Assembly (NCBI RefSeq): GCF_003334315.1
Contig: NZ_QOWR01000056.1
Source of the DNA: Escherichia coli
GTDB lineage: Bacteria; Pseudomonadota; Gammaproteobacteria; Enterobacterales; Enterobacteriaceae
DNA length: 29,908 nucleotides
Strand: one strand, 5' to 3'
The translations under genes and the position numbers were made by a program. The notes under the pieces are model-generated. The model made no database searches and had not been told where the DNA came from. It saw only the letters and a program-made list of their open reading frames with translations. This document shows, in pieces, positions 1 through 22,792 of the stretch. How positions within the stretch are numbered: the first letter of the stretch is position 1; each line of letters opens with the position of its first letter.

Positions 1-149
1 GGTTGAGAAGCGGTGTAAGTGAACTGCAGTTGCCATGTTTTACGGCAGTGAGAGCAGAGATAGCGCTGATGTCCGGCGGTGCTTTTGCCGTTACGCACCA
101 CCCCGTCAGTAGCTGAACAGGAGGGACAGCTGATAGAAACAGAAGCCAC
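1..149 (-). CDS. insA: IS1 InsA N-terminal part (partial, runs off the window)
   Basis: GTG start at 147..149 on the minus strand; translation [49 protein letters not shown] matches the InsA N-terminus (zinc-finger CxxC...CxxC) from recall. Confidence 0.7.
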
Positions 150-204
150 TGGAGCACCTCAAAAACACCATCATACACTAAATCAGTAAGTTGGCATCAT
201 CACC
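1..204 (-). mobile_element. IS1 insertion sequence, left end (IRL plus start of insA), partial; continues beyond the window start
   Basis: Reverse complement of 1..204 matches the IS1 left end from recall (GGTGATG[A/C]TGCCAACTTACTGATTTAGTGTATGATGGTGTTTTTGAGGTGCTCCAGTGGCTTCT...), with one mismatch in the terminal inverted repeat. The bcsE reading frame changes character exactly at position 204/205. Confidence 0.85.
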
Positions 205-711
205 AAAAAGTGAACGGTATTCCTCAAGCAACAATGAAAATTGTTTATCGTTATTATTTCCGGGATTAATTACCAAAAGCGAACAATGGTTTAACCTGCT
301 CCATTTATTCATTTTATCCAACCATGAGCGAAGCCGCTCGGCAGGAATGTTTTGCCATGCGTTATTTGCGCAAACAAGAATAAAAAGGTAATTATGGGGA
401 TCAATAGAACACTGCAAATCACGGGTCAAATAGTATAGACCTTTTTCATGATTTAGCATTGAAAATAATTTTATTTTTTCCGGCCCTTGAGAATCATCTA
501 ATTGAAAGATTTTCGCCGGATCGCTGTCCATGCTAATGACCGCGACGTGTGCGGTTTCAGCCTGGGATGCAATTGTTTGATTCGCCAGACTGATAGCATC
601 TTCATGGCGATCGACGTTAAACCACCAGACGCCGCCTGCTGGCATATGTCGCAGCTCATCCCATAATGATGAGATACCGATAGAGAATACAGGGTCCACA
701 ATGTCCCTCAT
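205..711 (-). pseudogene. bcsE: bcsE 5' fragment (codons 1-169 of a ~523-codon gene) truncated by the IS1 insertion
   Basis: ATG at 709..711 on the minus strand; translation MRDIVDPVFSIGISSLWDELRHMPAGGVWWFNVDRHEDAISL...EEYRSLF matches the BcsE N-terminus. The six-frame ORF 178..711 continues 8 codons into IS1 (GDDANLLI) and then stops. Confidence 0.8.
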
Positions 712-983: not shown

Positions 984-1172
984 ATGAATAACAATGAACC
1001 AGATACTCTGCCTGATCCCGCGATAGGCTATATCTTCCAGAATGATATTGTGGCGTTAAAGCAGGCATTTTCACTGCCTGATATTGATTATGCCGATATT
1101 TCCCAACGCGAACAGTTGGCCGCGGCATTAAAACGCTGGCCGTTGCTGGCAGAGTTTGCGCAACAAAAGTAG
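984..1172 (+). CDS. bcsR: Cellulose biosynthesis protein BcsR (YhjR), 62 aa
   Basis: ORF 984..1172, translation MNNNEPDTLPDPAIGYIFQNDIVALKQAFSLPDIDYADISQREQLAAALKRWPLLAEFAQQK; sits immediately upstream of bcsQ, divergent from bcsE. Confidence 0.85.
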   Translation: MNNNEPDTLPDPAIGYIFQNDIVALKQAFSLPDIDYADISQREQLAAALKRWPLLAEFAQQK

Positions 1173-1183
1173 GGGATTGGTGA

Positions 1184-1936
1184 ATGGCCGTACTGGGATT
1201 GCAGGGGGTGCGGGGAGGCGTGGGGACAACAACCATCACCGCCGCATTAGCCTGGTCATTACAAATGTTGGGAGAAAATGTTCTGGTGGTCGATGCCTGC
1301 CCGGACAACTTGTTGCGCCTGTCATTTAATGTTGATTTTACCCACCGTCAGGGCTGGGCCAGAGCGATGCTGGATGGCCAGGACTGGCGTGACGCTGGGT
1401 TGCGCTACACCTCGCAGCTCGATTTGCTGCCTTTTGGTCAGTTATCCATTGAAGAACAAGAAAATCCACAGCACTGGCAAACCCGGCTGAGCGATATTTG
1501 CTCCGGCTTACAGCAACTAAAAGCCAGCGGGCGTTACCAGTGGATTTTAATCGACTTACCGCGTGATGCCTCGCAGATAACCCACCAGCTGCTGAGTTTG
1601 TGCGATCACTCGCTGGCAATCGTCAATGTGGATGCCAACTGCCATATCCGACTGCATCAGCAAGCGCTGCCGGATGGCGCACATATTTTGATTAATGACT
1701 TCCGTATTGGCAGTCAGGTTCAGGACGATATTTACCAGCTTTGGTTGCAAAGCCAGCGCCGATTGCTGCCGATGCTCATTCATCGTGATGAAGCGATGGC
1801 TGAATGCCTGGCGGCTAAGCAACCAGTCGGTGAATACCGCAGTGATGCGCTGGCGGCTGAAGAGATACTGACGCTGGCGAACTGGTGCCTGTTGAACTAC
1901 TCCGGGCTGAAAACGCCAGTCGGGAGTGCATCATGA
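1184..1936 (+). CDS. bcsQ: Cellulose synthase operon protein BcsQ, ParA/MinD-family ATPase, 250 aa, intact
   Basis: ORF 1184..1936; deviant Walker A GVRGGVGTTT near the N-terminus. Codon 6 is TTG (Leu), not the TAG reported for K-12. Stop overlaps the bcsA start (ATGA). Confidence 0.9.
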   Translation: MAVLGLQGVRGGVGTTTITAALAWSLQMLGENVLVVDACPDNLLRLSFNVDFTHRQGWARAMLDGQDWRDAGLRYTSQLDLLPFGQLSIEEQENPQHWQTRLSDICSGLQQLKASGRYQWILIDLPRDASQITHQLLSLCDHSLAIVNVDANCHIRLHQQALPDGAHILINDFRIGSQVQDDIYQLWLQSQRRLLPMLIHRDEAMAECLAAKQPVGEYRSDALAAEEILTLANWCLLNYSGLKTPVGSAS

Positions 1937-4551
1937 GTATCCTGACCCGGTGGTTGCTTATCCCGCCGGTCAACGCGCGGCTTATCGGGCGTTATCGCGA
2001 TTATCGTCGTCACGGTGCGTCGGCTTTCAGCGCGACGCTCGGCTGTTTCTGGATGATCCTGGCCTGGATTTTTATTCCGCTGGAGCACCCGCGCTGGCAG
2101 CGTATTCGCGCAGAACATAAAAACCTGTATCCGCATATCAACGCCTCGCGTCCGCGTCCGCTGGACCCGGTCCGTTATCTCATTCAAACATGCTGGTTAT
2201 TGATCGGTGCATCGCGCAAAGAAACGCCGAAACCGCGCAGGCGGGCATTTTCAGGTCTGCAAAATATTCGTGGACGTTACCATCAATGGATGAACGAGCT
2301 GCCTGAGCGCGTTAGCCATAAAACACAGCATCTTGATGAGAAAAAAGAGCTCGGTCATTTGAGTGCCGGGGCGCGGCGGTTGATCCTCGGTATCATCGTC
2401 ACCTTCTCGCTGATTCTGGCGTTAATCTGCGTTACTCAACCGTTTAACCCGCTGGCGCAGTTTATCTTCCTGATGCTGCTGTGGGGTGTAGCGCTGATCG
2501 TACGGCGGATGCCGGGGCGCTTCTCGGCGCTAATGTTGATTGTGCTGTCGCTGACCGTTTCTTGCCGTTATATCTGGTGGCGTTACACCTCTACGCTGAA
2601 CTGGGACGATCCGGTCAGCCTGGTGTGCGGGCTTATTCTGCTCTTCGCTGAAACGTACGCGTGGATTGTGCTGGTGCTCGGCTACTTCCAGGTAGTATGG
2701 CCGCTGAATCGTCAGCCGGTGCCATTGCCGAAAGATATGTCGCTGTGGCCGTCGGTGGATATCTTTGTCCCGACTTACAACGAAGATCTCAACGTGGTGA
2801 AAAATACTATTTACGCCTCGCTGGGTATCGACTGGCCGAAAGACAAGCTGAACATCTGGATCCTCGATGACGGCGGTAGGGAAGAGTTTCGCCAGTTTGC
2901 GCAAAACGTGGGGGTGAAATATATCGCCCGTACCACTCATGAACATGCGAAAGCGGGCAACATCAACAATGCGCTGAAATATGCCAAAGGCGAGTTCGTG
3001 TCGATTTTCGACTGCGACCACGTACCAACGCGATCGTTCCTGCAAATGACCATGGGCTGGTTCCTGAAAGAGAAACAGCTGGCGATGATGCAGACTCCAC
3101 ACCACTTCTTCTCGCCGGACCCGTTTGAACGCAACCTGGGGCGTTTTCGTAAAACACCGAACGAAGGCACGCTGTTCTATGGTCTGGTGCAGGATGGCAA
3201 CGATATGTGGGACGCCACTTTCTTCTGCGGTTCCTGTGCGGTGATTCGTCGTAAGCCGCTGGATGAAATTGGCGGCATTGCTGTCGAAACCGTGACTGAA
3301 GATGCGCATACTTCTCTGCGTTTGCACCGTCGTGGCTATACCTCCGCGTATATGCGTATTCCGCAGGCGGCGGGGCTGGCGACCGAAAGTCTGTCGGCGC
3401 ATATCGGTCAGCGTATTCGCTGGGCGCGCGGGATGGTACAAATCTTTCGTCTCGATAACCCGCTCACCGGTAAAGGACTGAAGTTTGCTCAGCGGCTGTG
3501 CTACGTCAACGCCATGTTCCACTTCTTGTCGGGCATTCCACGGCTGATCTTCCTGACTGCGCCGCTGGCGTTCCTGCTGCTTCATGCCTACATCATCTAT
3601 GCGCCAGCGTTGATGATCGCCCTATTCGTGCTGCCGCATATGATCCATGCCAGCCTGACCAACTCCAAGATCCAGGGCAAATATCGCCACTCTTTCTGGA
3701 GTGAAATCTACGAAACGGTGCTGGCGTGGTATATCGCACCACCGACGCTGGTGGCGCTGATTAACCCGCACAAAGGCAAATTTAACGTCACCGCCAAAGG
3801 TGGACTGGTGGAAGAAGAGTACGTCGACTGGGTGATCTCGCGGCCCTACATCTTCCTTGTCCTGCTCAACCTGGTGGGCGTTGCGGTAGGCATCTGGCGC
3901 TACTTCTATGGCCCGCCAACCGAGATGCTCACCGTGGTCGTCAGTATGGTGTGGGTGTTCTACAACCTGATTGTTCTTGGCGGCGCAGTTGCGGTATCGG
4001 TAGAAAGCAAACAGGTACGCCGATCGCACCGCGTGGAGATGACGATGCCCGCGGCAATTGCCCGCGAAGATGGTCACCTCTTCTCGTGTACCGTTCAGGA
4101 TTTCTCCGACGGTGGTTTGGGGATCAAGATCAACGGTCAGGCGCAGATTCTGGAAGGGCAGAAAGTGAATCTGTTGCTTAAACGCGGTCAGCAGGAATAC
4201 GTCTTCCCGACCCAGGTGGCGCGCGTGATGGGTAATGAAGTTGGGCTGAAATTAATGCCGCTCACCACCCAGCAACATATCGATTTTGTGCAGTGTACGT
4301 TTGCCCGTGCGGATACATGGGCGCTCTGGCAGGACAGCTACCCGGAAGATAAGCCGCTGGAAAGTCTGCTGGATATTCTGAAGCTCGGCTTCCGTGGCTA
4401 CCGCCATCTGGCGGAGTTTGCGCCTTCTTCGGTGAAGGGCATATTCCGTGTGCTGACTTCTCTGGTTTCCTGGGTTGTATCGTTTATTCCGCGCCGCCCG
4501 GAGCGGAGCGAAACGGCACAACCATCGGATCAGGCTTTGGCTCAACAATGA
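1933..4551 (+). CDS. bcsA: Cellulose synthase catalytic subunit BcsA (GT2 glycosyltransferase with C-terminal PilZ domain), 872 aa
   Basis: ATG at 1933 (MSILTRWLL...) inside the longer six-frame ORF 1885..4551. GT2 motifs visible (DDG, DCD, TED, QRIRW) and PilZ c-di-GMP motifs RRSHR and DFSDGG. Length matches the K-12 protein from recall. Confidence 0.95.
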   Translation: MSILTRWLLIPPVNARLIGRYRDYRRHGASAFSATLGCFWMILAWIFIPLEHPRWQRIRAEHKNLYPHINASRPRPLDPVRYLIQTCWLLIGASRKETPKPRRRAFSGLQNIRGRYHQWMNELPERVSHKTQHLDEKKELGHLSAGARRLILGIIVTFSLILALICVTQPFNPLAQFIFLMLLWGVALIVRRMPGRFSALMLIVLSLTVSCRYIWWRYTSTLNWDDPVSLVCGLILLFAETYAWIVLVLGYFQVVWPLNRQPVPLPKDMSLWPSVDIFVPTYNEDLNVVKNTIYASLGIDWPKDKLNIWILDDGGREEFRQFAQNVGVKYIARTTHEHAKAGNINNALKYAKGEFVSIFDCDHVPTRSFLQMTMGWFLKEKQLAMMQTPHHFFSPDPFERNLGRFRKTPNEGTLFYGLVQDGNDMWDATFFCGSCAVIRRKPLDEIGGIAVETVTEDAHTSLRLHRRGYTSAYMRIPQAAGLATESLSAHIGQRIRWARGMVQIFRLDNPLTGKGLKFAQRLCYVNAMFHFLSGIPRLIFLTAPLAFLLLHAYIIYAPALMIALFVLPHMIHASLTNSKIQGKYRHSFWSEIYETVLAWYIAPPTLVALINPHKGKFNVTAKGGLVEEEYVDWVISRPYIFLVLLNLVGVAVGIWRYFYGPPTEMLTVVVSMVWVFYNLIVLGGAVAVSVESKQVRRSHRVEMTMPAAIAREDGHLFSCTVQDFSDGGLGIKINGQAQILEGQKVNLLLKRGQQEYVFPTQVARVMGNEVGLKLMPLTTQQHIDFVQCTFARADTWALWQDSYPEDKPLESLLDILKLGFRGYRHLAEFAPSSVKGIFRVLTSLVSWVVSFIPRRPERSETAQPSDQALAQQ

Positions 4552-4561
4552 TGATAACGCG

Positions 4562-6901
4562 ATGAAAAGAAAACTATTCTGGATTTGTGCAGTGGCTATG
4601 GGGATGAGTGCGTTCCCCTCTTTCATGACGCAGGCGACGCCAGCAACGCAACCACTGATCAATGCTGAGCCAGCTGTAGCCGCCCAGACGGAACAAAATC
4701 CGCAGGTGGGGCAAGTGATGCCGGGCGTGCAGGGCGCTGATGCGCCAGTCGTGGCGCAGAACGGTCCTTCGCGTGATGTGAAGCTGACCTTTGCGCAAAT
4801 TGCACCGCCGCCGGGCAGCATGGTGCTACGTGGCATTAACCCGAACGGCAGCATTGAGTTTGGTATGCGCAGCGATGAAGTGGTGACGAAGGCGATGCTC
4901 AACCTCGAATACACCCCATCGCCATCGTTACTGCCTGTCCAGTCGCAGTTAAAGGTTTATCTCAATGATGAACTGATGGGCGTGCTGCCAGTGACCAAAG
5001 AACAGTTGGGTAAAAAAACGCTGGCGCAAATGCCCATTAACCCACTGTTTATTACCGACTTCAACCGTGTACGGCTGGAGTTTGTCGGCCATTATCAGGA
5101 CGTGTGCGAAAACCCGGCCAGCACCACGCTTTGGCTGGATGTTGGGCGGAGCAGTGGACTGGATCTGACCTATCAGACCCTGAATGTGAAGAATGACCTG
5201 TCACACTTCCCGGTGCCATTCTTTGACCCGCGCGATAACCGTACTAACACCTTGCCGATGGTCTTTGCGGGTGCGCCGGATGTTGGGCTGCAACAAGCCT
5301 CTGCCATTGTCGCCTCGTGGTTTGGTTCGCGTTCTGGCTGGCGTGGGCAGAACTTCCCGGTGCTCTATAACCAACTGCCGGATCGTAATGCCATTGTCTT
5401 TGCAACCAACGACAAACGGCCGGACTTCCTGCGCGATCATCCGGCGGTAAAAGCCCCGGTGATTGAGATGATTAACCATCCGCAGAATCCTTACGTCAAA
5501 CTGCTGGTGGTGTTTGGTCGTGACGACAAAGACCTGTTGCAGGCAGCGAAAGGTATCGCTCAGGGTAACATTCTGTTCCGTGGTGAAAGCGTGGTAGTGA
5601 ATGAAGTGAAACCGCTGCTACCGCGTAAGCCGTACGATGCGCCGAACTGGGTACGTACCGATCGTCCGGTCACATTTGGCGAACTGAAAACCTATGAAGA
5701 ACAGTTACAATCCAGCGGTCTTGAGCCAGCAGCGATTAACGTTTCGCTAAACCTGCCGCCGGATCTCTACCTGATGCGCAGTACCGGCATTGATATGGAT
5801 ATTAATTACCGCTACACCATGCCGCCGGTGAAAGACAGTTCGCGGATGGATATCAGCCTGAATAACCAGTTCCTGCAATCCTTCAACCTGAGCAGCAAAC
5901 AGGAGGCGAACCGCCTGCTGCTGCGGATTCCGGTATTACAAGGTTTGCTGGATGGCAAAACAGATGTCTCTATTCCGGCGCTGAAACTGGGCGCGACCAA
6001 CCAGCTGCGCTTCGACTTTGAGTATATGAACCCGATGCCGGGCGGTTCGGTGGATAACTGTATTACCTTCCAGCCGGTGCAGAATCATGTGGTGATTGGT
6101 GACGACTCCACCATCGACTTCTCGAAGTATTACCACTTCATCCCGATGCCGGATCTACGCGCCTTTGCTAACGCGGGCTTCCCATTCAGCCGGATGGCGG
6201 ATCTGTCGCAAACCATCACCGTGATGCCGAAAGCGCCTAACGAAGCACAGATGGAAACGTTGCTGAATACTGTTGGTTTTATCGGCGCACAGACGGGCTT
6301 CCCGGCGATTAATCTGACGGTGACCGATGATGGCAGCACCATTCAGGGCAAAGATGCCGACATCATGATCATCGGTGGTATCCCGGACAAACTGAAAGAC
6401 GATAAGCAGATCGACCTATTGGTGCAGGCGACCGAAAGCTGGGTGAAAACACCGATGCGCCAGACCCCGTTCCCCGGCATTGTGCCGGACGAGAGCGATC
6501 GCGCGGCAGAAACCCGGTCAACGCTGACCTCTTCCGGTGCGATGGCGGCGGTGATTGGCTTCCAGTCGCCGTATAACGACCAGCGCAGCGTGATTGCGCT
6601 GTTGGCAGATAGCCCACGCGGTTATGAAATGCTTAACGATGCGGTGAACGATAGCGGCAAACGCGCCACCATGTTCGGTTCGGTCGCGGTGATCCGCGAG
6701 TCCGGTATCAACAGCCTACGTGTTGGCGACGTTTATTACGTAGGTCATCTGCCGTGGTTCGAGCGCGTGTGGTATGCGCTGGCAAACCATCCGATTCTGC
6801 TGGCGGTGCTGGCGGCTATCAGTGTGATATTGCTGGCATGGGTACTGTGGCGTCTGCTGCGAATTATTAGTCGTCGTCGTCTTAACCCGGATAACGAGTA
6901 A
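4562..6901 (+). CDS. bcsB: Cellulose synthase periplasmic subunit BcsB, 779 aa
   Basis: ATG at 4562 (MKRKLFWICAVAMGMSAFPSFMTQA..., signal-peptide-like) inside six-frame ORF 4475..6901; C-terminal hydrophobic anchor; 10 bp after the bcsA stop. Confidence 0.95.
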   Translation: MKRKLFWICAVAMGMSAFPSFMTQATPATQPLINAEPAVAAQTEQNPQVGQVMPGVQGADAPVVAQNGPSRDVKLTFAQIAPPPGSMVLRGINPNGSIEFGMRSDEVVTKAMLNLEYTPSPSLLPVQSQLKVYLNDELMGVLPVTKEQLGKKTLAQMPINPLFITDFNRVRLEFVGHYQDVCENPASTTLWLDVGRSSGLDLTYQTLNVKNDLSHFPVPFFDPRDNRTNTLPMVFAGAPDVGLQQASAIVASWFGSRSGWRGQNFPVLYNQLPDRNAIVFATNDKRPDFLRDHPAVKAPVIEMINHPQNPYVKLLVVFGRDDKDLLQAAKGIAQGNILFRGESVVVNEVKPLLPRKPYDAPNWVRTDRPVTFGELKTYEEQLQSSGLEPAAINVSLNLPPDLYLMRSTGIDMDINYRYTMPPVKDSSRMDISLNNQFLQSFNLSSKQEANRLLLRIPVLQGLLDGKTDVSIPALKLGATNQLRFDFEYMNPMPGGSVDNCITFQPVQNHVVIGDDSTIDFSKYYHFIPMPDLRAFANAGFPFSRMADLSQTITVMPKAPNEAQMETLLNTVGFIGAQTGFPAINLTVTDDGSTIQGKDADIMIIGGIPDKLKDDKQIDLLVQATESWVKTPMRQTPFPGIVPDESDRAAETRSTLTSSGAMAAVIGFQSPYNDQRSVIALLADSPRGYEMLNDAVNDSGKRATMFGSVAVIRESGINSLRVGDVYYVGHLPWFERVWYALANHPILLAVLAAISVILLAWVLWRLLRIISRRRLNPDNE

Positions 6902-6907
6902 TTGAAG

Positions 6908-8014
6908 ATGAATGTGTTGCGTAGTGGAATCGTGACGATGCTGCTGCTGGCTGCCTTTAGTGTTCAGGCAGCCTGTACCTGGCCTGCCTGGGAGCAGTTT
7001 AAAAAGGATTACATCAGTCAGGAAGGGCGCGTCATCGACCCCAGCGACGCGCGCAAAATCACCACCTCCGAAGGGCAAAGTTACGGTATGTTCTTTGCCC
7101 TGGCGGCTAACGACCGTGCAGCTTTCGATAATATTCTCGACTGGACGCAGAACAATCTCGCTCAGGGTTCTTTAAAAGAAGGTTTGCCCGCCTGGCTGTG
7201 GGGTAAGAAAGAGAACAGTAAGTGGGAAGTGCTGGACAGCAATTCGGCCTCCGATGGTGATGTCTGGATGGCCTGGTCATTGCTGGAGGCGGGGCGTTTG
7301 TGGAAAGAGCAGCGTTATACCGACATCGGCAGCGCGTTGCTAAAACGTATCGCGCGGGAGGAAGTGGTGACGGTGCCTGGGCTGGGTTCCATGTTGTTAC
7401 CGGGCAAAGTGGGTTTTGCTGAGGATAACAGCTGGCGTTTTAACCCCAGCTACCTGCCGCCGACGCTGGCGCAGTATTTCACCCGCTTTGGCGCGCCGTG
7501 GACTACGCTGCGCGAAACCAATCAACGTTTATTGCTGGAAACCGCCCCGAAAGGCTTTTCGCCAGACTGGGTGCGCTATGAGAAAGACAAAGGCTGGCAG
7601 CTAAAAGCCGAAAAAACATTGATCAGCAGCTACGACGCTATCCGCGTTTACATGTGGGTAGGCATGATGCCTGACAGCGATCCGCAAAAAGCGCGGATGC
7701 TCAACCGGTTTAAACCGATGGCGACATTCACTGAGAAAAACGGTTATCCGCCGGAAAAAGTGGATGTGGCTACGGGGAAAGCGCAGGGTAAAGGACCGGT
7801 CGGTTTTTCTGCCGCCATGCTGCCTTTTTTACAAAACCGCGATGCGCAGGCCGTTCAGCGCCAGCGCGTGGCCGATAACTTTCCCGGCAGCGATGCCTAT
7901 TACAACTATGTGCTGACCCTGTTTGGACAAGGCTGGGATCAACACCGTTTCCGCTTCTCGACAAAAGGTGAGTTATTACCTGACTGGGGCCAGGAATGCG
8001 TAAATTCACACTAA
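6908..8014 (+). CDS. bcsZ: Endo-1,4-beta-glucanase BcsZ (GH8 family), 368 aa
   Basis: ATG at 6908 ([21 protein letters not shown], signal peptide); the track ORF starts 2 codons earlier at a TTG. Length matches K-12 BcsZ from recall. Confidence 0.9.
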
Positions 8015-11000
8015 ACATATTCACACTTTCCCTCGGTCTGGCCGTCATGCCGATGGTCGAGGCAGCACCAACCGCTCAGCAACAGTTGCTGGAGCAAGTT
8101 CGGTTAGGTGAAGCGACCCATCGTGAAGATCTGGTGCAACAGTCGTTATATCGGCTGGAACTTATTGATCCGAATAACCCGGACGTCGTTGCCGCCCGTT
8201 TCCGTTCTTTGTTACGTCAGGGCGATATTGATGGCGCGCAAAAACAGCTCGATCGGCTGTCTCAGTTAGCGCCGAGTTCAAATGCGTATAAATCGTCGCG
8301 GACTACGATGCTACTTTCCACGCCGGATGGTCGTCAGGCACTGCAACAGGCAAGATTGCAGGCGACTACCGGTCATGCGGAAGAAGCTGTGGCGAGTTAC
8401 AACAAACTGTTCAACGGTGCGCCGCCGGAAGGTGACATTGCTGTCGAGTACTGGAGTACGGTGGCGAAAATTCCGGCTCGCCGTGGCGAAGCGATCAATC
8501 AGTTAAAACGCATCAATGCGGATGCACCGGGCAACACGGGCCTGCAAAACAATCTGGCGCTATTGCTGTTTAGTAGCGATCGGCGTGACGAAGGCTTTGC
8601 CGTTCTGGAACAAATGGCGAAATCGAACGCCGGACGCGAGGGGGCCTCTAAAATCTGGTACGGGCAGATTAAAGACATGCCCGTCAGCGATGCCAGTGTG
8701 TCGGCGCTGAAAAAATATCTTTCGATCTTTAGCGATGGCGATAGCGTGGCGGCTGCACAATCGCAACTGGCAGAACAGCAAAAACAGCTGGCCGACCCTG
8801 CTTTCCGCGCTCGTGCGCAAGGTTTAGCGGCGGTGGACTCTGGTATGGCGGGTAAAGCCATTCCCGAACTACAACAGGCAGTGCGGGCGAACCCGAAAGA
8901 CAGTGAGGCTCTGGGGGCGCTGGGCCAGGCATATTCACAGAAAGGCGATCGCGCCAATGCAGTGGCGAATCTGGAAAAAGCCCTCGCACTGGACCCGCAC
9001 AGCAGCAACAACGACAAATGGAACAGTCTGCTGAAAGTAAACCGCTACTGGCTGGCGATCCAGCAGGGCGATGCTGCGCTGAAAGCCAATAATCCTGACC
9101 GGGCAGAACGCCTGTTCCAGCAGGCGCGTAATGTCGATAACACCGACAGTTATGCAGTGCTGGGGCTGGGCGATGTGGCGATGGCGCGCAAAGATTACCC
9201 CGCCGCTGAACGCTATTATCAGCAGACCCTGCGGATGGACAGCGGCAACACTAACGCCGTGCGCGGGCTGGCGAATATTTATCGCCAGCAGTCGCCAGAA
9301 AAAGCTGAAGCGTTTATCGCCTCGCTCTCTGCCAGCCAGCGGCGCAGCATTGATGATATCGAACGCAGCCTGCAAAACGACCGTCTGGCACAGCAGGCAG
9401 AGGCACTGGAAAACCAGGGCAAATGGGCGCAGGCGGCAGCACTTCAGCGGCAACGACTGGCGCTGGACCCCGGCAGCGTATGGATTACTTACCGACTTTC
9501 GCAGGATCTCTGGCAGGCCGGACAACGCAGCCAGGCTGATACGTTAATGCGCAATCTGGCGCAGCAGAAGCCGAATGACCCGGAGCAGGTTTACGCTTAC
9601 GGGCTGTATCTCTCTGGTCATGACCAGGACAGAGCGGCGCTGGCGCATATCAACAGCCTGCCGCGCGCGCAGTGGAACAACAATATTCAGGAGCTGGTTA
9701 ATCGCCTGCAAAGCGATCAGGTGCTGGAAACCGCTAATCGCCTGCGAGAAAGCGGCAAAGAAGCTGAAGCGGAAGCGATGCTGCGCCAGCAACCGCCCTC
9801 CACGCGTATTGACCTCACGCTGGCTGACTGGGCGCAGCAGCGACGTGATTACACCGCCGCCCGCGCTGCATATCAGAATGTCCTGACGCGGGAGCCAACT
9901 AACGCCGATGCCATTCTGGGGCTGACGGAAGTGGATATTGCTGCCGGTGACACAGCGGCAGCACGTAGCCAGCTGGCGAAACTGCCCGCTACCGATAACG
10001 CCTCGCTGAACACACAGCGGCGCGTGGCGCTGGCACAGGCACAGCTTGGAGATACCGCAGCGGCGCAGCAGACGTTTAATAAGTTGATCCCGCAGGCAAA
10101 ATCTCAGCCACCGTCGATGGAAAGCGCGATGGTGCTGCGCGACGGTGCGAAGTTTGAAGCGCAGGCGGGCGATCCAAAGCAGGCGCTGGAAACCTACAAA
10201 GACGCTATGGTCGCATCCGGTGTGACTACGACGCGTCCGCAGGATAACGACACCTTTACCCGACTGACCCGTAACGACGAGAAAGATGACTGGCTGAAAC
10301 GCGGCGTGCGCAGCGATGCGGCGGACCTCTATCGCCAGCAGGATCTTAACGTCACCCTTGAGCATGATTATTGGGGATCGAGCGGCACCGGTGGTTACTC
10401 CGATCTGAAAGCGCACACCACTATGTTGCAGGTGGACGCGCCGTATTCTGACGGGCGGATGTTCTTTCGCAGTGATTTCGTCAATATGAACGTCGGCAGT
10501 TTCTCCACGAATGCCGATGGCAAATGGGATGACAACTGGGGCACCTGTACATTACAGGACTGTAGCGGCAACCGCAGCCAGTCGGATTCCGGTGCCAGCG
10601 TGGCGGTCGGCTGGCGAAATGACGTCTGGAGCTGGGATATCGGCACCACGCCGATGGGCTTCAACGTGGTGGATGTGGTCGGCGGCATCAGTTACAGCGA
10701 TGATATCGGGCCGCTGGGTTACACCGTTAACGCCCACCGTCGGCCCATCTCCAGTTCTTTGCTGGCCTTTGGTGGGCAAAAAGACTCCCCGAGTAATACC
10801 GGGAAAAAATGGGGCGGTGTGCGTGCGGACGGCGTGGGGCTAAGCCTGAGCTACGATAAAGGTGAAGCAAACGGCGTCTGGGCATCGCTTAGTGGCGACC
10901 AGTTAACCGGTAAAAATGTCGAAGATAACTGGCGCGTGCGCTGGATGACGGGCTATTACTATAAGGTCATTAACCAGAACAATCGCCGCGTCACAATCGG

Positions 11001-11469
11001 CCTGAACAACATGATCTGGCATTACGACAAAGATCTGAGTGACTACTCACTCGGTCAGGGCGGTTACTACAGTCCGCAGGAATACCTGTCGTTTGCCATA
11101 CCGGTGATGTGGCGGGAGCGCACGGAAAACTGGTCGTGGGAGCTGGGTGCGTCTGGCTCGTGGTCGCATTCACGCACCAAAACCATGCCGCGTTATCCGC
11201 TGATGAATCTGATCCCGACCGACTGGCAGGAAGAAGCTGCGCGGCAATCCAACGATGGCGGCAGCAGTCAGGGCTTCGGCTACACGGCGCGGGCATTACT
11301 TGAACGACGTGTTACTTCCAACTGGTTTGTTGGCACGGCAATTGATATCCAGCAGGCGAAAGATTACGCACCCAGCCATTTCCTGCTCTACGTACGTTAT
11401 TCCGCCGCCGGATGGCAGGGTGACATGGATTTACCGCCGCAGCCGCTGATACCTTACGCCGACTGGTAA
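7996..11469 (+). CDS. bcsC: Cellulose synthase outer-membrane/TPR subunit BcsC, 1157 aa
   Basis: ORF 7996..11469 with AGGA Shine-Dalgarno; signal peptide, Ala/Leu/Gln-rich TPR-like N-terminal two thirds and a Gly/Ser/Trp/Tyr-rich beta-barrel-like C-terminus; overlaps the bcsZ 3' end by 19 nt. Confidence 0.9.
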
Positions 11470-11550
11470 GTTTTCAGATAGCGCCTCTCTTAATGCCGCT
11501 GCGATCGGGTATACTCGGGCGGCAATCTGGGATTTCCGGGGGGAGACAAT

Positions 11551-13539
11551 TTGCGCGTAAGTCGCTCGTTAACAATCAAGCAGATGGCAATGGTGGCAGC
11601 CGTTGTCCTGGTGTTCGTTTTTATTTTTTGCACCGTTTTGCTGTTCCATCTGGTCCAGCAGAATCGCTATAACACGGCTACGCAACTGGAAAGCATTGCT
11701 CGCTCTGTCCGCGAACCCTTATCTTCAGCTATTTTGAAAGGCGATATTCCCGAAGCGGAAGCTATTCTTGCCAGCATTAAACCGGCAGGCGTGGTCAGCC
11801 GTGCCGATGTAGTGCTGCCTAACCAGTTCCAGGCGCTGCGTAAAAGTTTTATTCCAGAGCGCCCGGTGCCGGTAATGGTTACTCGCCTGTTTGAGCTACC
11901 GGTTCAAATCTCGCTGGGCGTTTACTCGCTCGAACGTCCGGCAAACCCGCAGCCAATTGCCTATCTGGTACTACAGGCGGATTCCTTCCGTATGTATAAG
12001 TTCGTGATGAGCACCCTCTCAACGTTAGTGACCATTTACTTACTTTTGTCGCTTATCCTGACCGTCGCCATCAGCTGGTGCATTAACCGCCTGATTTTGC
12101 ATCCGTTACGCAATATTGCTCGCGAACTTAACGCCATCCCAGCCAAGGAGCTTGTTGGTCACCAACTGGCATTACCGCGTCTGCATCAGGACGATGAAAT
12201 CGGTATGTTGGTGCGCAGTTACAACCTCAACCAGCAATTGCTGCAGCGCCATTATGAAGAACAGAACGAAAATGCGATGCGCTTCCCGGTGTCGGATTTG
12301 CCGAACAAAGCCTTGCTGATGGAGATGCTGGAGCAGGTTGTCGCGCGTAAACAAACCACCGCGCTGATGATCATCACCTGTGAAACCCTGCGTGATACTG
12401 CGGGCGTGCTGAAAGAGGCGCAACGAGAAATTCTGCTGCTGACGCTGGTGGAAAAACTCAAATCGGTACTGTCGCCACGTATGATCCTCGCGCAGATTAG
12501 CGGTTATGACTTTGCTGTCATTGCCAACGGTGTACAGGAACCGTGGCACGCAATCACCTTAGGTCAGCAAGTGCTCACTATCATGAGCGAGCGCCTGCCG
12601 ATTGAACGTATTCAACTCCGTCCGCACTGTAGCATTGGCGTGGCGATGTTCTACGGCGATCTCACCGCCGAACAGCTTTACAGTCGCGCTATTTCTGCGG
12701 CATTTACCGCTCGCCATAAAGGCAAGAATCAGATTCAGTTCTTTGATCCGCAGCAGATGGAAGCCGCCCAGAAGCGGTTGACGGAAGAGAGCGATATCCT
12801 TAATGCACTGGAAAATCATCAGTTTGCTATTTGGTTACAGCCACAGGTCGAGATGACCAGCGGAAAACTGGTCAGTGCGGAAGTGTTACTGCGTATCCAG
12901 CAACCGGATGGCAGTTGGGACCTGCCGGATGGCTTAATCGATCGCATTGAGTGCTGTGGGCTGATGGTTACCGTCGGTCACTGGGTGCTGGAAGAGTCCT
13001 GTCGATTGCTTGCAGCCTGGCAAGAGCGCGGCATTATGCTGCCCTTGTCGGTAAACCTCTCTGCGCTGCAACTGATGCACCCAAATATGGTGGCGGATAT
13101 GCTGGAACTGTTAACCCGCTATCGCATTCAGCCGGGAACACTGATTCTGGAAGTGACAGAAAGCCGACGTATTGACGACCCTCATGCTGCGGTGGCAATC
13201 CTCCGTCCGCTGCGCAATGCCGGAGTTCGGGTGGCGCTGGATGATTTCGGCATGGGCTACGCAGGGCTGCGTCAGCTGCAGCATATGAAATCGTTGCCAA
13301 TCGACGTACTGAAAATCGACAAAATGTTTGTTGAAGGCTTGCCGGGAGATAGCAGCATGATTGCTGCAATTATCATGCTGGCGCAGAGCCTGAACTTACA
13401 AATGATTGCCGAAGGCGTGGAGACTGAAGCACAACGCGACTGGCTGGCAAAAGCGGGCGTTGGTATTGCCCAGGGCTTCCTTTTTGCTCGCCCACTCCCT
13501 ATTGAAATCTTCGAAGAGAGTTACCTGGAAGAAAAGTAG
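11551..13539 (+). CDS. pdeK: c-di-GMP phosphodiesterase PdeK (YhjK): transmembrane/HAMP, degenerate GGDEF and EAL domains
   Basis: ORF 11551..13539 from a TTG start preceded by GGGGGGAGA; an alternative ATG lies at 11584. Degenerate GGDEF-position motif SGYDF and EAL-position motif EVL visible in the translation. Confidence 0.8.
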
Positions 13540-13685: not shown

Positions 13686-15008
<1,323 letters not shown>

Positions 15009-15228: not shown

Positions 15229-16725
15229 ATGCAGGGCACAAAAATTCGACTTTTAGCGGGCGGTTTGCTGATGATGGCCACTGCTGGCTATGTGCAGGCA
15301 GATGCGCTCCAGCCTGATCCAGCATGGCAACAGGGGACGCTTTCCAACGGTTTACAGTGGCAAGTGCTGACCACCCCCCAGCGTCCCAGCGATCGTGTTG
15401 AAATTCGCCTGCTGGTTAATACCGGTTCGCTCGCCGAAAGTACACAACAGAGCGGTTACAGTCACGCCATCCCTCGTATTGCGCTAACGCAAAGCGGTGG
15501 CCTTGACGCAGCACAGGCGCGTTCATTGTGGCAGCAGGGGATCGACCCTAAACGCCCGATGCCGCCGGTAATTGTCTCTTATGACACCACGCTGTTTAAT
15601 CTGAGTTTGCCCAATAACCGTAACGATTTGCTGAAAGAAGCGCTCTCTTATCTGGCAAATGCCACTGGCAAATTGACCATCACACCAGAAACCATCAACC
15701 ACGCGCTGCAAAGTCAGGACATGGTGGCAACCTGGCCTGCCGATACTAAAGAGGGCTGGTGGCGCTATCGTCTGAAAGGGTCAACCTTGTTAGGTCACGA
15801 TCCTGCCGATCCGCTGAAACAACCCGTTGAAGCGGAAAAAATTAAAGATTTCTATCAGAAATGGTACACCCCGGATGCAATGACGCTACTGGTGGTGGGA
15901 AACGTGGATGCGCGCTCGGTTGTCGACCAAATAAACAAAACGTTTGGCGAACTGAAAGGCAAACGTGAAACGCCAGCTCCGGTGCCGACGCTTTCTCCGC
16001 TGCGTGCGGAAGCGGTGAGTATTATGACTGACGCGGTGCGTCAGGACCGGTTATCTATCATGTGGGATACGCCGTGGCAGCCGATTCGTGAATCAGCCGC
16101 ACTGCTGCGCTACTGGCGTGCGGACCTGGCCCGCGAGGCGCTGTTCTGGCATGTTCAGCAAGCGTTAAGCGCCAGTAACAGCAAAGACATCGGTCTTGGA
16201 TTTGACTGCCGTGTGCTGTATCTGCGTGCGCAGTGTGCCATCAACATCGAATCACCAAACGACAAGCTGAACAGCAACCTTAATCTGGTGGCGCGTGAAC
16301 TGGCGAAGGTTCGCGATAAAGGTCTGCCGGAAGAAGAGTTCAATGCGTTAGTGGCGCAAAAGAAACTGGAGCTGCAGAAACTGTTTGCCGCCTATGCACG
16401 AGCTGATACCGATATTCTGATGGGTCAGCGGATGCGTTCGTTGCAAAATCAGGTTGTCGATATCGCGCCGGAGCAATATCAGAAACTGCGGCAGGATTTC
16501 CTTAATAGCCTGACGGTAGAGATGTTAAATCAGGATCTGCGTCAACAGTTGTCGAATGATATGGCGTTAATACTGCTGCAGCCGAAAGGCGAGCCGGAAT
16601 TTAACATGAAAGCGTTGCAGGCGGTCTGGGATCAAATCATGGCCCCATCTACCGCCGCTGCGACCACCTCTGTCGCCACGGATGACGTACATCCTGAAGT
16701 GACGGATATTCCACCTGCACAGTAA
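15229..16725 (+). CDS. yhjJ: YhjJ, periplasmic M16-family (pitrilysin-like) protein, 498 aa
   Basis: ORF 15229..16725 with signal peptide MQGTKIRLLAGGLLMMATAGYVQA; identified from recall of K-12 YhjJ. No HxxEH zinc motif in the translation. Confidence 0.9.
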   Translation: MQGTKIRLLAGGLLMMATAGYVQADALQPDPAWQQGTLSNGLQWQVLTTPQRPSDRVEIRLLVNTGSLAESTQQSGYSHAIPRIALTQSGGLDAAQARSLWQQGIDPKRPMPPVIVSYDTTLFNLSLPNNRNDLLKEALSYLANATGKLTITPETINHALQSQDMVATWPADTKEGWWRYRLKGSTLLGHDPADPLKQPVEAEKIKDFYQKWYTPDAMTLLVVGNVDARSVVDQINKTFGELKGKRETPAPVPTLSPLRAEAVSIMTDAVRQDRLSIMWDTPWQPIRESAALLRYWRADLAREALFWHVQQALSASNSKDIGLGFDCRVLYLRAQCAINIESPNDKLNSNLNLVARELAKVRDKGLPEEEFNALVAQKKLELQKLFAAYARADTDILMGQRMRSLQNQVVDIAPEQYQKLRQDFLNSLTVEMLNQDLRQQLSNDMALILLQPKGEPEFNMKALQAVWDQIMAPSTAAATTSVATDDVHPEVTDIPPAQ

Positions 16726-16820: not shown

Positions 16821-17750
16821 TTACGCTGGCATCGCCTCACGCGGGATAATCGCGCCGCGATACTGAATAACGGTACTTGCGGTCAGGTGCCCACGTTTCG
16901 CCGCGTCTTCCGCGCTGCCGCCTGTCAGACGTACCGCCAGATAACCGGCACTGAAAGAGTCGCCAGCTGCGGTGGTATCGATCACTTTTTCTTTCGGCAG
17001 TTTCACCGCCGGAACATCCACTAACCCTTCGCCAGCAATGGACACCAGGCAAGAATCCGCCCCGCGTTTCACCACCACTTCTTTCACGCCCGCGTTATGG
17101 GTGCGCGCAATGACGTCTTCCACCGGCTGTTGACCCCACAGCGCGTCTTCGTCGTCCAGCGTCAGGAAGGCGATATCCGTGCATTCCAGCATTTGTTGGT
17201 ACACCTGCTGTGTCTCTTCTTTGCTGGCCCACAGGCGCGGACGATAGTTATTGTCGAAAATCACTTTTCCGCCGTTGGCGCGGCATTCGCGCAGCAGGGA
17301 AAGCAGCTTTTCGCGGCTGGTCGGGCTTAAGATCGCCAGGCTAATCCCGCTCAGGTAGAGATAATCGAAATTCGCCAGCTCTTCGCAAATCGCCGCAGAC
17401 TGCTCACTCTCCAGCCAGAATTTGGCGGCGGCTTCGTTCCGCCAGTAGTAGAACGTACGCTCGCCGGTGCTGTCGGTTTCAATGTAGTAAAGGCCCGGCA
17501 GACGGTTTTCCATCCGTTGGGTCAGGGAAGTATCAACGTTCTCGCCGTGCCAGGCGTCCAGCATCTGCTGGCTAAAACTGTCCGTTCCCAGCGCCGTTAC
17601 GTAATGAACGGTTAATGCCGCAGGATCGACCTGACGGGCGATATAGACGGAAGTGTTCAGGGTATCGCCGCCGAAACCGCGCTTAACGTCCGCGCCTTTC
17701 TCGGAAAGCTCAATCATGCATTCGCCAATCACGGCAATCTTTTTGGACAT
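16821..17750 (-). CDS. kdgK: 2-dehydro-3-deoxygluconokinase KdgK (PfkB family), 309 aa
   Basis: ATG at 17748..17750 on the minus strand (MSKKIAVIGECMIELSEKG...), within the longer track ORF 16821..18098; length matches K-12 KdgK from recall. Confidence 0.9.
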   Translation of the reverse strand: MSKKIAVIGECMIELSEKGADVKRGFGGDTLNTSVYIARQVDPAALTVHYVTALGTDSFSQQMLDAWHGENVDTSLTQRMENRLPGLYYIETDSTGERTFYYWRNEAAAKFWLESEQSAAICEELANFDYLYLSGISLAILSPTSREKLLSLLRECRANGGKVIFDNNYRPRLWASKEETQQVYQQMLECTDIAFLTLDDEDALWGQQPVEDVIARTHNAGVKEVVVKRGADSCLVSIAGEGLVDVPAVKLPKEKVIDTTAAGDSFSAGYLAVRLTGGSAEDAAKRGHLTASTVIQYRGAIIPREAMPA

Positions 17751-17981: not shown

Positions 17982-18749
17982 ATGATAAGGCAGGTTATCC
18001 AGCGAATAAGCAACCCTGAAGCAAGCATCGAGAGCTTGCAGGAACGGCGTTTTTGGTTGCAGTGTGAGCGTGCTTACACCTGGCAGCCGATCTATCAAAC
18101 ATGCGGGCGGTTAATGGCCGTGGAGCTATTAACGGTGGTCACGCATCCCTTGAACCCTTCGCAACGCCTGCCGCCGGATCGCTATTTTACTGAAATCACC
18201 GTCAGCCATCGGATGGAGGTTGTGAAAGAGCAGATTGATTTGCTGGCGCAAAAAGCCGACTTCTTTATAGAGCACGGCCTGCTGGCATCGGTCAATATTG
18301 ATGGCCCTACGCTCATCGCCCTGCGTCAGCAACCAAAAATCCTGCGCCAGATTGAGCGTCTTCCCTGGCTGCGTTTCGAACTGGTGGAGCATATCCGTCT
18401 GCCGAAAGATTCAACCTTTGCCTCGATGTGTGAATTTGGCCCGCTGTGGCTGGATGATTTTGGTACCGGGATGGCAAATTTCTCTGCGCTAAGTGAAGTG
18501 CGTTATGACTACATCAAAATCGCGCGAGAACTGTTTGTGATGCTGCGTCAGTCGCCGGAAGGACGCACACTCTTTTCTCAGCTTTTACATCTAATGAATC
18601 GCTATTGTCGCGGGGTGATTGTCGAGGGCGTAGAAACGCCGGAAGAGTGGCGTGATGTTCAGAACTCGCCCGCATTCGCCGCACAAGGCTGGTTTCTTTC
18701 ACGCCCGGCACCGATAGAAACGCTGAATACGGCGGTTCTGGCGCTATAA
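17982..18749 (+). CDS. pdeH: c-di-GMP phosphodiesterase PdeH (YhjH), EAL-only, 255 aa
   Basis: ATG at 17982 (MIRQVIQRISNPEASIESLQERRFWLQ...) inside track ORF 17937..18749; EAL-position motif ELL and DDFGTG motif visible. Confidence 0.9.
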   Translation: MIRQVIQRISNPEASIESLQERRFWLQCERAYTWQPIYQTCGRLMAVELLTVVTHPLNPSQRLPPDRYFTEITVSHRMEVVKEQIDLLAQKADFFIEHGLLASVNIDGPTLIALRQQPKILRQIERLPWLRFELVEHIRLPKDSTFASMCEFGPLWLDDFGTGMANFSALSEVRYDYIKIARELFVMLRQSPEGRTLFSQLLHLMNRYCRGVIVEGVETPEEWRDVQNSPAFAAQGWFLSRPAPIETLNTAVLAL

Positions 18750-20950: not shown

Positions 20951-21047
20951 TGCCGGATGCGGCGTGAACGCCTTATCCGGCCTACAAATCCTTGCGAATT
21001 CAATATATTGTATGGAAATTCAGGCCTGATAAGCGTAGCGCATCAGG
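20951..21047. repeat. REP (repetitive extragenic palindromic) pair forming a BIME-like element between convergent yhjG and yhjE
   Basis: gccggatgcggcgtgaacgccttatccggcctac at 20951..20984 and inverted REP-like aggcctgataagcgtagcgcatcaggc at 21021..21047. Confidence 0.6.
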
Positions 21048-22695: not shown

Positions 22696-22792
22696 GCCGG
22701 ATGCGATGCTGGCGCATCTTATCCGGCCTACGGGGAGCCAGGCCGAATAAAATCGTATGCCGGATAAGGCGTTTACGCCGCATCCGGCCTAT
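22696..22792. repeat. REP pair (BIME-like) between yhjD and yhjE
   Basis: gccggatgcgatgctggcgcatcttatccggcctac at 22696..22731 and inverted atgccggataaggcgtttacgccgcatccggcctat at 22757..22792. Confidence 0.6.

Follow-up and report, generated by a model that had tools for sequence, protein, structure and literature searches.

The stretch of DNA analyzed here (the window) comprises 29,908 nucleotides of an Escherichia coli contig (NZ_QOWR01000056.1), and its open reading frame layout identifies it as the bcs/yhj region, as does a megablast comparison with every complete E. coli genome. From position 202 to 29908 the window aligns with K-12 MG1655 without a gap; this single block is 29,707 bases long and contains 131 substitutions and no insertions or deletions (99.56% identity). 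This block spans gadA to bcsE and is collinear with MG1655. The gene order given in Table 1 was established from the K-12 annotation together with gene-by-gene BLAST. An earlier note, made from the sequence alone, had assigned intervals to BcsA, PdeK and PdeH that prove to be exactly those annotated in K-12, and had described the region as one of known architecture. The latter is borne out by the collinearity with K-12 and by the identity of all three proteins with their K-12 counterparts.

Table 1. Genes and sequence features of the window, with coordinates, strand and the evidence used for each assignment.
Feature	Position	Strand	Basis
IS1 left end (IRL and start of insA), in bcsE; continues past the window edge	1..201	-	N-terminus of InsA encoded on the minus strand at 3-149
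bcsE 5′ fragment, codons 1-170	202..711	-	100% identical to K-12 bcsE nt 1-510
ORF of 170 BcsE residues plus 7 IS1-encoded residues	178-711	-	ORF layout
bcsR	984..1172	+	100% identical to K-12; NF040717 match
bcsQ, intact	1184..1936	+	NF007460, 543 bits vs cut-off 399
bcsA, catalytic subunit of cellulose synthase; PilZ c-di-GMP receptor domain at the C-terminus	1933..4551	+	Pfam GT2 and PilZ; NF008558
BcsA PilZ domain, aa 694-790	4012..4302	+	RRSHR nt 4018-4032; DFSDGG nt 4099-4116
bcsB, periplasmic subunit, docking partner of PdeK and DgcC	4562..6901	+	K-12 comparison, NCBIfam; interaction from PMC7397504
bcsZ, endoglucanase	6908..8014	+	K-12 BLAST, NCBIfam
bcsC, outer-membrane subunit	7996..11469	+	K-12 BLAST, NCBIfam
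pdeK (yhjK/hmsP), GAPES3-HAMP-degenerate GGDEF-EAL phosphodiesterase, TTG start	11551..13539	+	Pfam; NF008807
PdeK SGYDF, aa 317-321, in the position of the GGDEF active site	12499..12513	+	Opposite GGDEF of 5M3C and 4RNH
PdeK EAL domain, aa 415-648; EVL at nt 12880-12888	12793..13494	+	Pfam, alignments
dctA	13722-15008		K-12 annotation and BLAST
yhjJ	15229-16725		K-12 annotation and BLAST
kdgK	16821-17750	-	K-12 annotation and BLAST
pdeH (yhjH), stand-alone EAL phosphodiesterase; ELL at nt 18123-18131	17982..18749	+	100% nucleotide identity to K-12; Pfam; NF008617
Beyond pdeH, in order: yhjG, yhjE, yhjD, rcdB, yhjB, treF, ccp, start of gadA			K-12 annotation and BLAST

BcsA, PdeK, PdeH and BcsR show no amino acid differences from the K-12 proteins, and BcsB, BcsZ and BcsC carry three, three and seven, respectively. 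All 22 nucleotide substitutions in bcsA are synonymous, as are both of those in pdeK. Judged from the sequence, the pattern in bcsA argues for purifying selection that would have acted on the synthase until recently. The interval from bcsQ to bcsC (1184-11469) holds 125 of the 131 substitutions, and bcsC itself is 2.4% divergent (82 SNPs). Six substitutions fall in the remaining ∼19 kb of the aligned block, with three in the 16 kb from dctA onward. Because the substitutions are concentrated in this way, they suggest a recombination tract across bcsQ-bcsC, whose putative boundary would lie between bcsC and pdeK.

Several further features of the window were recorded. At position 959, in the divergent control region between bcsR and bcsE and 25 nucleotides upstream of the bcsR start codon, the G of K-12 is replaced by A. 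No families reached the gathering threshold when the whole window was scanned against Rfam. A 34-nucleotide inverted repeat with 94% complementarity (20952-20985 and 22755-22788) lies on both sides of yhjE and is REP-like (GCCGGATGCGGCG...). A 32-nucleotide direct match of 81% identity between bcsB (5738-5769) and pdeH (18153-18184) is most likely due to chance, and the repeat search of the window yielded nothing beyond these two pairs.

The synthase gene encodes all of the motifs expected of a c-di-GMP-responsive cellulose synthase. Pfam assigns Glycos_transf_2 to residues 277-447 (E 1e-23) and PilZ to residues 694-790 (E 2e-14) of BcsA, and the protein scores 1794 bits against NCBIfam model NF008558 (cut-off 992). 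The full GT2 signature (DDG, DxD, TED, QxxRW, HAKAGN and FFCGS) is present as DDGG at 312, HAKAGN at 338, DCD at 360, FFCGS at 430, TED at 455 and QRIRW at 493, each of which aligns with its counterpart in Rhodobacter sphaeroides BcsA (4HG6). The receptor motifs that had been read from the translation, RRSHR (696-700) and DFSDGG (723-728), fall inside the Pfam PilZ match, such that both RxxxR and (D/N)xSxxG are found within a PilZ fold, and they align with the RxxxR and DxSxxG motifs of 4HG6. Moreover, residues 260-800 are identical to the E. coli BcsA chains of solved structures 7LBY, 9B8V and 9FMV.

Upstream of bcsA, codon 6 of bcsQ is TTG (Leu) in the window, whereas in K-12 it is a TAG stop codon. 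This stop codon renders K-12 cellulose-negative. In NT1N31, the nearest genome that shares the IS1 insertion discussed below, bcsQ is annotated with an internal stop.

Three c-di-GMP signaling proteins had been described as clustered at this locus. All three are indeed present, but the number is an undercount, as BcsE is a fourth. The genes pdeK and pdeH are separated by dctA, yhjJ and kdgK, a gap of 4.4 kb. This short distance, together with the finding that a pdeH knockout produces more curli and more cellulose (PMC5635695), might indicate that the location of pdeH reflects cellulose-specific coupling and that the three genes constitute one co-regulated module. However, only pdeK has been reported to neighbor the cellulose operon across many species (PMC7397504). 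PdeH is a member of the flagellar regulon, not a partner specific to cellulose; it is a FliA-dependent enzyme of the EAL type, very abundant and without a sensor, draining the global pool of c-di-GMP (PMC5635695). We therefore regard cellulose-specific coupling as unlikely, and treat PdeH as a global rather than a local component.

The bcsE gene is the one c-di-GMP component within the window that is disrupted. It matches K-12 through codon 170 and then meets the left end of IS1, in which insA reads in the bcsE direction; the exact junction can be placed only to within about 4 bp. Among 5426 complete E. coli genomes, only 14 have IS1 joined to bcsE close to this position, none of them with exactly the same junction. 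NT1N31 has the same arrangement, with an annotated IS1 family transposase, and the insertion in that genome is accompanied by a 9-bp target duplication, CACTTTTTG. Relative to NT1N31, the junction in the window is offset by 1 bp and has T in place of G in the terminal inverted repeat of IS1 (GGTGATGATGCC instead of GGTGATGCTGCC). Either IS1 inserted here independently, at a hot spot, or the end has mutated.

The remaining BcsE fragment covers positions 1-170 of the 523 in NCBIfam model NF011619, and its score, 359 bits, falls short of the cut-off of 929. BcsE, a c-di-GMP-binding regulator of the GIL/REC*-GGDEF* type, carries two I-site-like c-di-GMP-binding motifs, R306ATD and R415TGD (PMC8892547). 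The break lies upstream of both, and the 170-codon fragment has neither; a full-length BcsE with the two motifs is not encoded in the window, and the 3′ part of the gene lies outside it. The earlier note attributed any loss of the c-di-GMP circuit to the bcsE disruption. This attribution is sound for the window, but the specific diguanylate cyclase, DgcC, and the CsgD and RpoS inputs are encoded elsewhere.

What such a disruption entails can be gauged from other strains. Non-polar deletions of bcsE, bcsF or bcsG in a cellulose-positive K-12 derivative each result in a curli-only colony morphotype (PMC4287979). Nonetheless, BcsE has been described as a protein that enhances cellulose production but is not strictly necessary for it (PMC8892547), and how large the phenotypic effect would be is for this reason uncertain. 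The O104:H4 outbreak strain provides a parallel, in that its synthase genes are likewise intact while the c-di-GMP-binding protein BcsE is inactivated (Richter et al. 2014, PMC4287979). In that strain, however, the lesion is a +1 frameshift at codon 448, whereas here IS1 follows codon 170.

It is also conceivable, though quite improbable, that a read-out promoter in IS1 drives the 3′ part of bcsE (REC*-GGDEF*, with both c-di-GMP sites) along with bcsFG, thus generating a split or deregulated BcsE instead of a simple null. A split protein of this kind would resemble the situation in organisms that have the two BcsE parts as separate genes. If this were true, the three intact proteins would operate in a circuit that is rewired and not broken. 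The reading we favor is that bcsE is inactivated by the insertion.

PdeK exhibits a domain series of GAPES3 (residues 36-155), HAMP (178-231), GGDEF (247-394) and EAL (415-648). The Pfam match to GGDEF is weak (E 1e-10), in comparison with that to EAL (E 4e-59). Over its full length the protein scores 781 bits against the HmsP equivalog model NF008807 (cut-off 733). Its motifs include SGYDF (317-321), EVLLR (444-448), SVNLS (500), EVTES (534), DDFGMG (564), KIDK (588), EGVET (621) and QGF (641). We aligned PdeK by using HMMER with the GGDEF-EAL proteins 5M3C, which we take to be PA0575, and MorA (4RNH), and with the EAL domain of MucR (5M1T). In these alignments SGYDF stands opposite the GGDEF of 5M3C and 4RNH, and EVLLR stands opposite EALVR/EALLR. 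The SVNLS, EVTES, DDFGMGY, KID, EGVE and QGF motifs are all opposite the same signatures in 5M3C, 4RNH and 5M1T. Thus, the degenerate GGDEF position and the EVL variant motif noticed earlier are both confirmed. With SGYDF in place of the GG(D/E)EF motif of diguanylate cyclases and a weak Pfam match, PdeK is not classed as a cyclase.

For EAL phosphodiesterases we inspected the E of EAL(xR), the N, ExxE, DDFG, the K of K(xD), EGVE and the Q. All of these residues are retained in PdeK, as E444, N502, E534/E537, D564-D565, K588, E621/E624 and Q641. A MAFFT alignment of the EAL domains of PdeK, K-12 PdeL (YahA) and MorA with PdeH includes among its invariant columns the E of EAL, the N, both E residues of ExxE, DDFG, the K, EGVE and the Q. 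PdeL, an active phosphodiesterase, likewise reads EVL in this alignment, and the variant is for that reason no sign of degeneracy.

Right after DDFGMGYAG (∼13261-13269, in the region of residues 571-573), PdeK has a three-residue insertion relative to MorA, PA0575 and MucR. The site corresponds to the loop 6/helix alpha-5 region that controls EAL dimer activation, and the insertion is identical in K-12.

The earlier note had left PdeK as a phosphodiesterase or a sensor, and experiments on the identical K-12 protein resolve this choice in favor of a phosphodiesterase. The cytoplasmic part of PdeK is highly active in vitro, and this activity is abolished by the E431A/V432A substitution, which converts EVL to AAL, and by E611A (PMC7397504). 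These mutations are numbered for a 649-residue protein; in the 662-residue numbering used here, which is offset by 13 residues, they affect E444/V445 of EVL and E624 of EGVE. PdeK interacts with BcsB and DgcC, and has been reported to owe its action solely to enzymatic activity, serving as a local sink that opposes DgcC (PMC7397504).

It is very improbable that PdeK is instead a catalytically inactive c-di-GMP sensor or receptor in the manner of LapD, FimX or CsrD. The degenerate GGDEF domain and the insertion after DDFGMGY could be taken in this sense, as could weaker matches to the LapD and CsrD models and the weak in vivo phenotypes of the full-length protein (PMC7397504). However, the LapD and CsrD matches are far under the cut-offs of their models while the HmsP equivalog threshold is exceeded, the metal and catalytic residues of the EAL domain are complete, and EVL occurs in the active enzyme PdeL. 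The in vitro activity and its loss in the two mutants refute the sensor reading.

PdeH consists of an EAL domain alone (residues 26-242, E 6e-32), in agreement with its earlier description as an EAL-only enzyme. All of the domains expected of the three translations (PilZ, GGDEF and EAL) were thus recovered by the Pfam search. The protein scores 462 bits against NCBIfam model NF008617 (cut-off 190), and its motifs are ELLTV (48-52), SVNID (103), ELVEH (133), DDFGTG (158), KIAR (179), EGVET (215) and QGW (235). The metal and catalytic residues of the EAL domain are as complete as those of PdeK, being present as E48, N105, E133/E136, D158-D159, K179, E215/E218 and Q235. As in K-12, PdeH departs from the signature at two positions: the Arg of EALxR is replaced by V52 (18123-18137), and the Asp of KxD is replaced by A181 (KIA, 179-181). 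The first of these, in the ELLTV motif, had been overlooked in the earlier note. The effect of replacing the EALxR arginine has reportedly been studied by mutagenesis of RocR. Nothing on loop 6 of YhjH turned up in a full-text literature search.

By motif alone the two departures look atypical, but this impression is overridden because the identical K-12 protein has been measured as active. PdeH is regarded as the master phosphodiesterase of E. coli, and its deletion in K-12 raises cellular c-di-GMP more than tenfold (PMC5635695). Among solved structures, the nearest to it in sequence are the degenerate, FlhD-binding EAL-like proteins STM1697 (E 2e-11) and YdiV (E 3e-9), yet the idea that this similarity and the two substitutions make PdeH a protein of that type, which binds FlhD instead of hydrolyzing c-di-GMP, is scarcely credible given the c-di-GMP increase upon deletion, the equivalog score, the complete set of catalytic residues, and the retention of DDFGTG and EGVE, both of which STM1697 and YdiV have lost.

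Taken together, the window almost certainly contains an E. coli type II cellulose (bcs) locus of the canonical kind, along with the c-di-GMP module known from it; of the c-di-GMP components in view, only BcsE is broken, and the sequence offers nothing that speaks against this reading. The gene identities, domains, motifs and insertion that enter this explanation come from the present analysis, and the enzyme activities and interactions come from the literature. BcsA would polymerize UDP-glucose only when c-di-GMP occupies its C-terminal PilZ domain (R696xxxR700 and D723xSxxG728). PdeK, a membrane protein whose GGDEF domain is dead (SGYDF) and whose EAL domain, of the EVL variant, is complete, would dock on BcsB and hydrolyze c-di-GMP beside the synthase, creating a local sink against DgcC, which is encoded elsewhere. 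PdeH would serve as the global drain of c-di-GMP. IS1 breaks off BcsE after codon 170, and neither RxxD c-di-GMP-binding motif remains in the fragment. The insertion might also be polar on bcsF and bcsG, both of which lie outside the window.

The locus closely resembles previously characterized systems. Its gene order and motifs are the same as those of K-12 bcsRQABZC-pdeK with its local c-di-GMP module of DgcC, PdeK, BcsB and BcsA (Richter et al. 2020, PMC7397504). The two loci differ in that K-12 combines a bcsQ stop at codon 6 with an intact bcsE, whereas here bcsQ is intact and bcsE is interrupted by IS1. No difference was detected from the K-12 pdeH (yhjH) gene (Sarenko et al. 2017, PMC5635695), which is 100% identical at the nucleotide level. 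Compared with the PdeK orthologues Yersinia HmsP and Salmonella STM3615, which are represented by NF008807, PdeK exceeds the model cut-off over its full length; as judged by this model, it differs from them by sequence divergence of the orthologue level only.

The description of the bcs locus in terms of three c-di-GMP proteins is already known, and the locus is a textbook one. The present findings are useful for predicting the biofilm phenotype of this strain and add little beyond annotation. BcsA, PdeK and PdeH are predicted to be functional because they are identical to K-12 proteins whose activities have been measured. The synthase, its PilZ receptor domain, PdeK and PdeH are thus of wild type, and bcsQ is intact, unlike that of K-12. 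Any cellulose defect should therefore have its cause in bcsE::IS1, which may be polar on bcsFG, or at some locus beyond the window. We infer that cellulose in this strain would be reduced or absent, and unmodified.
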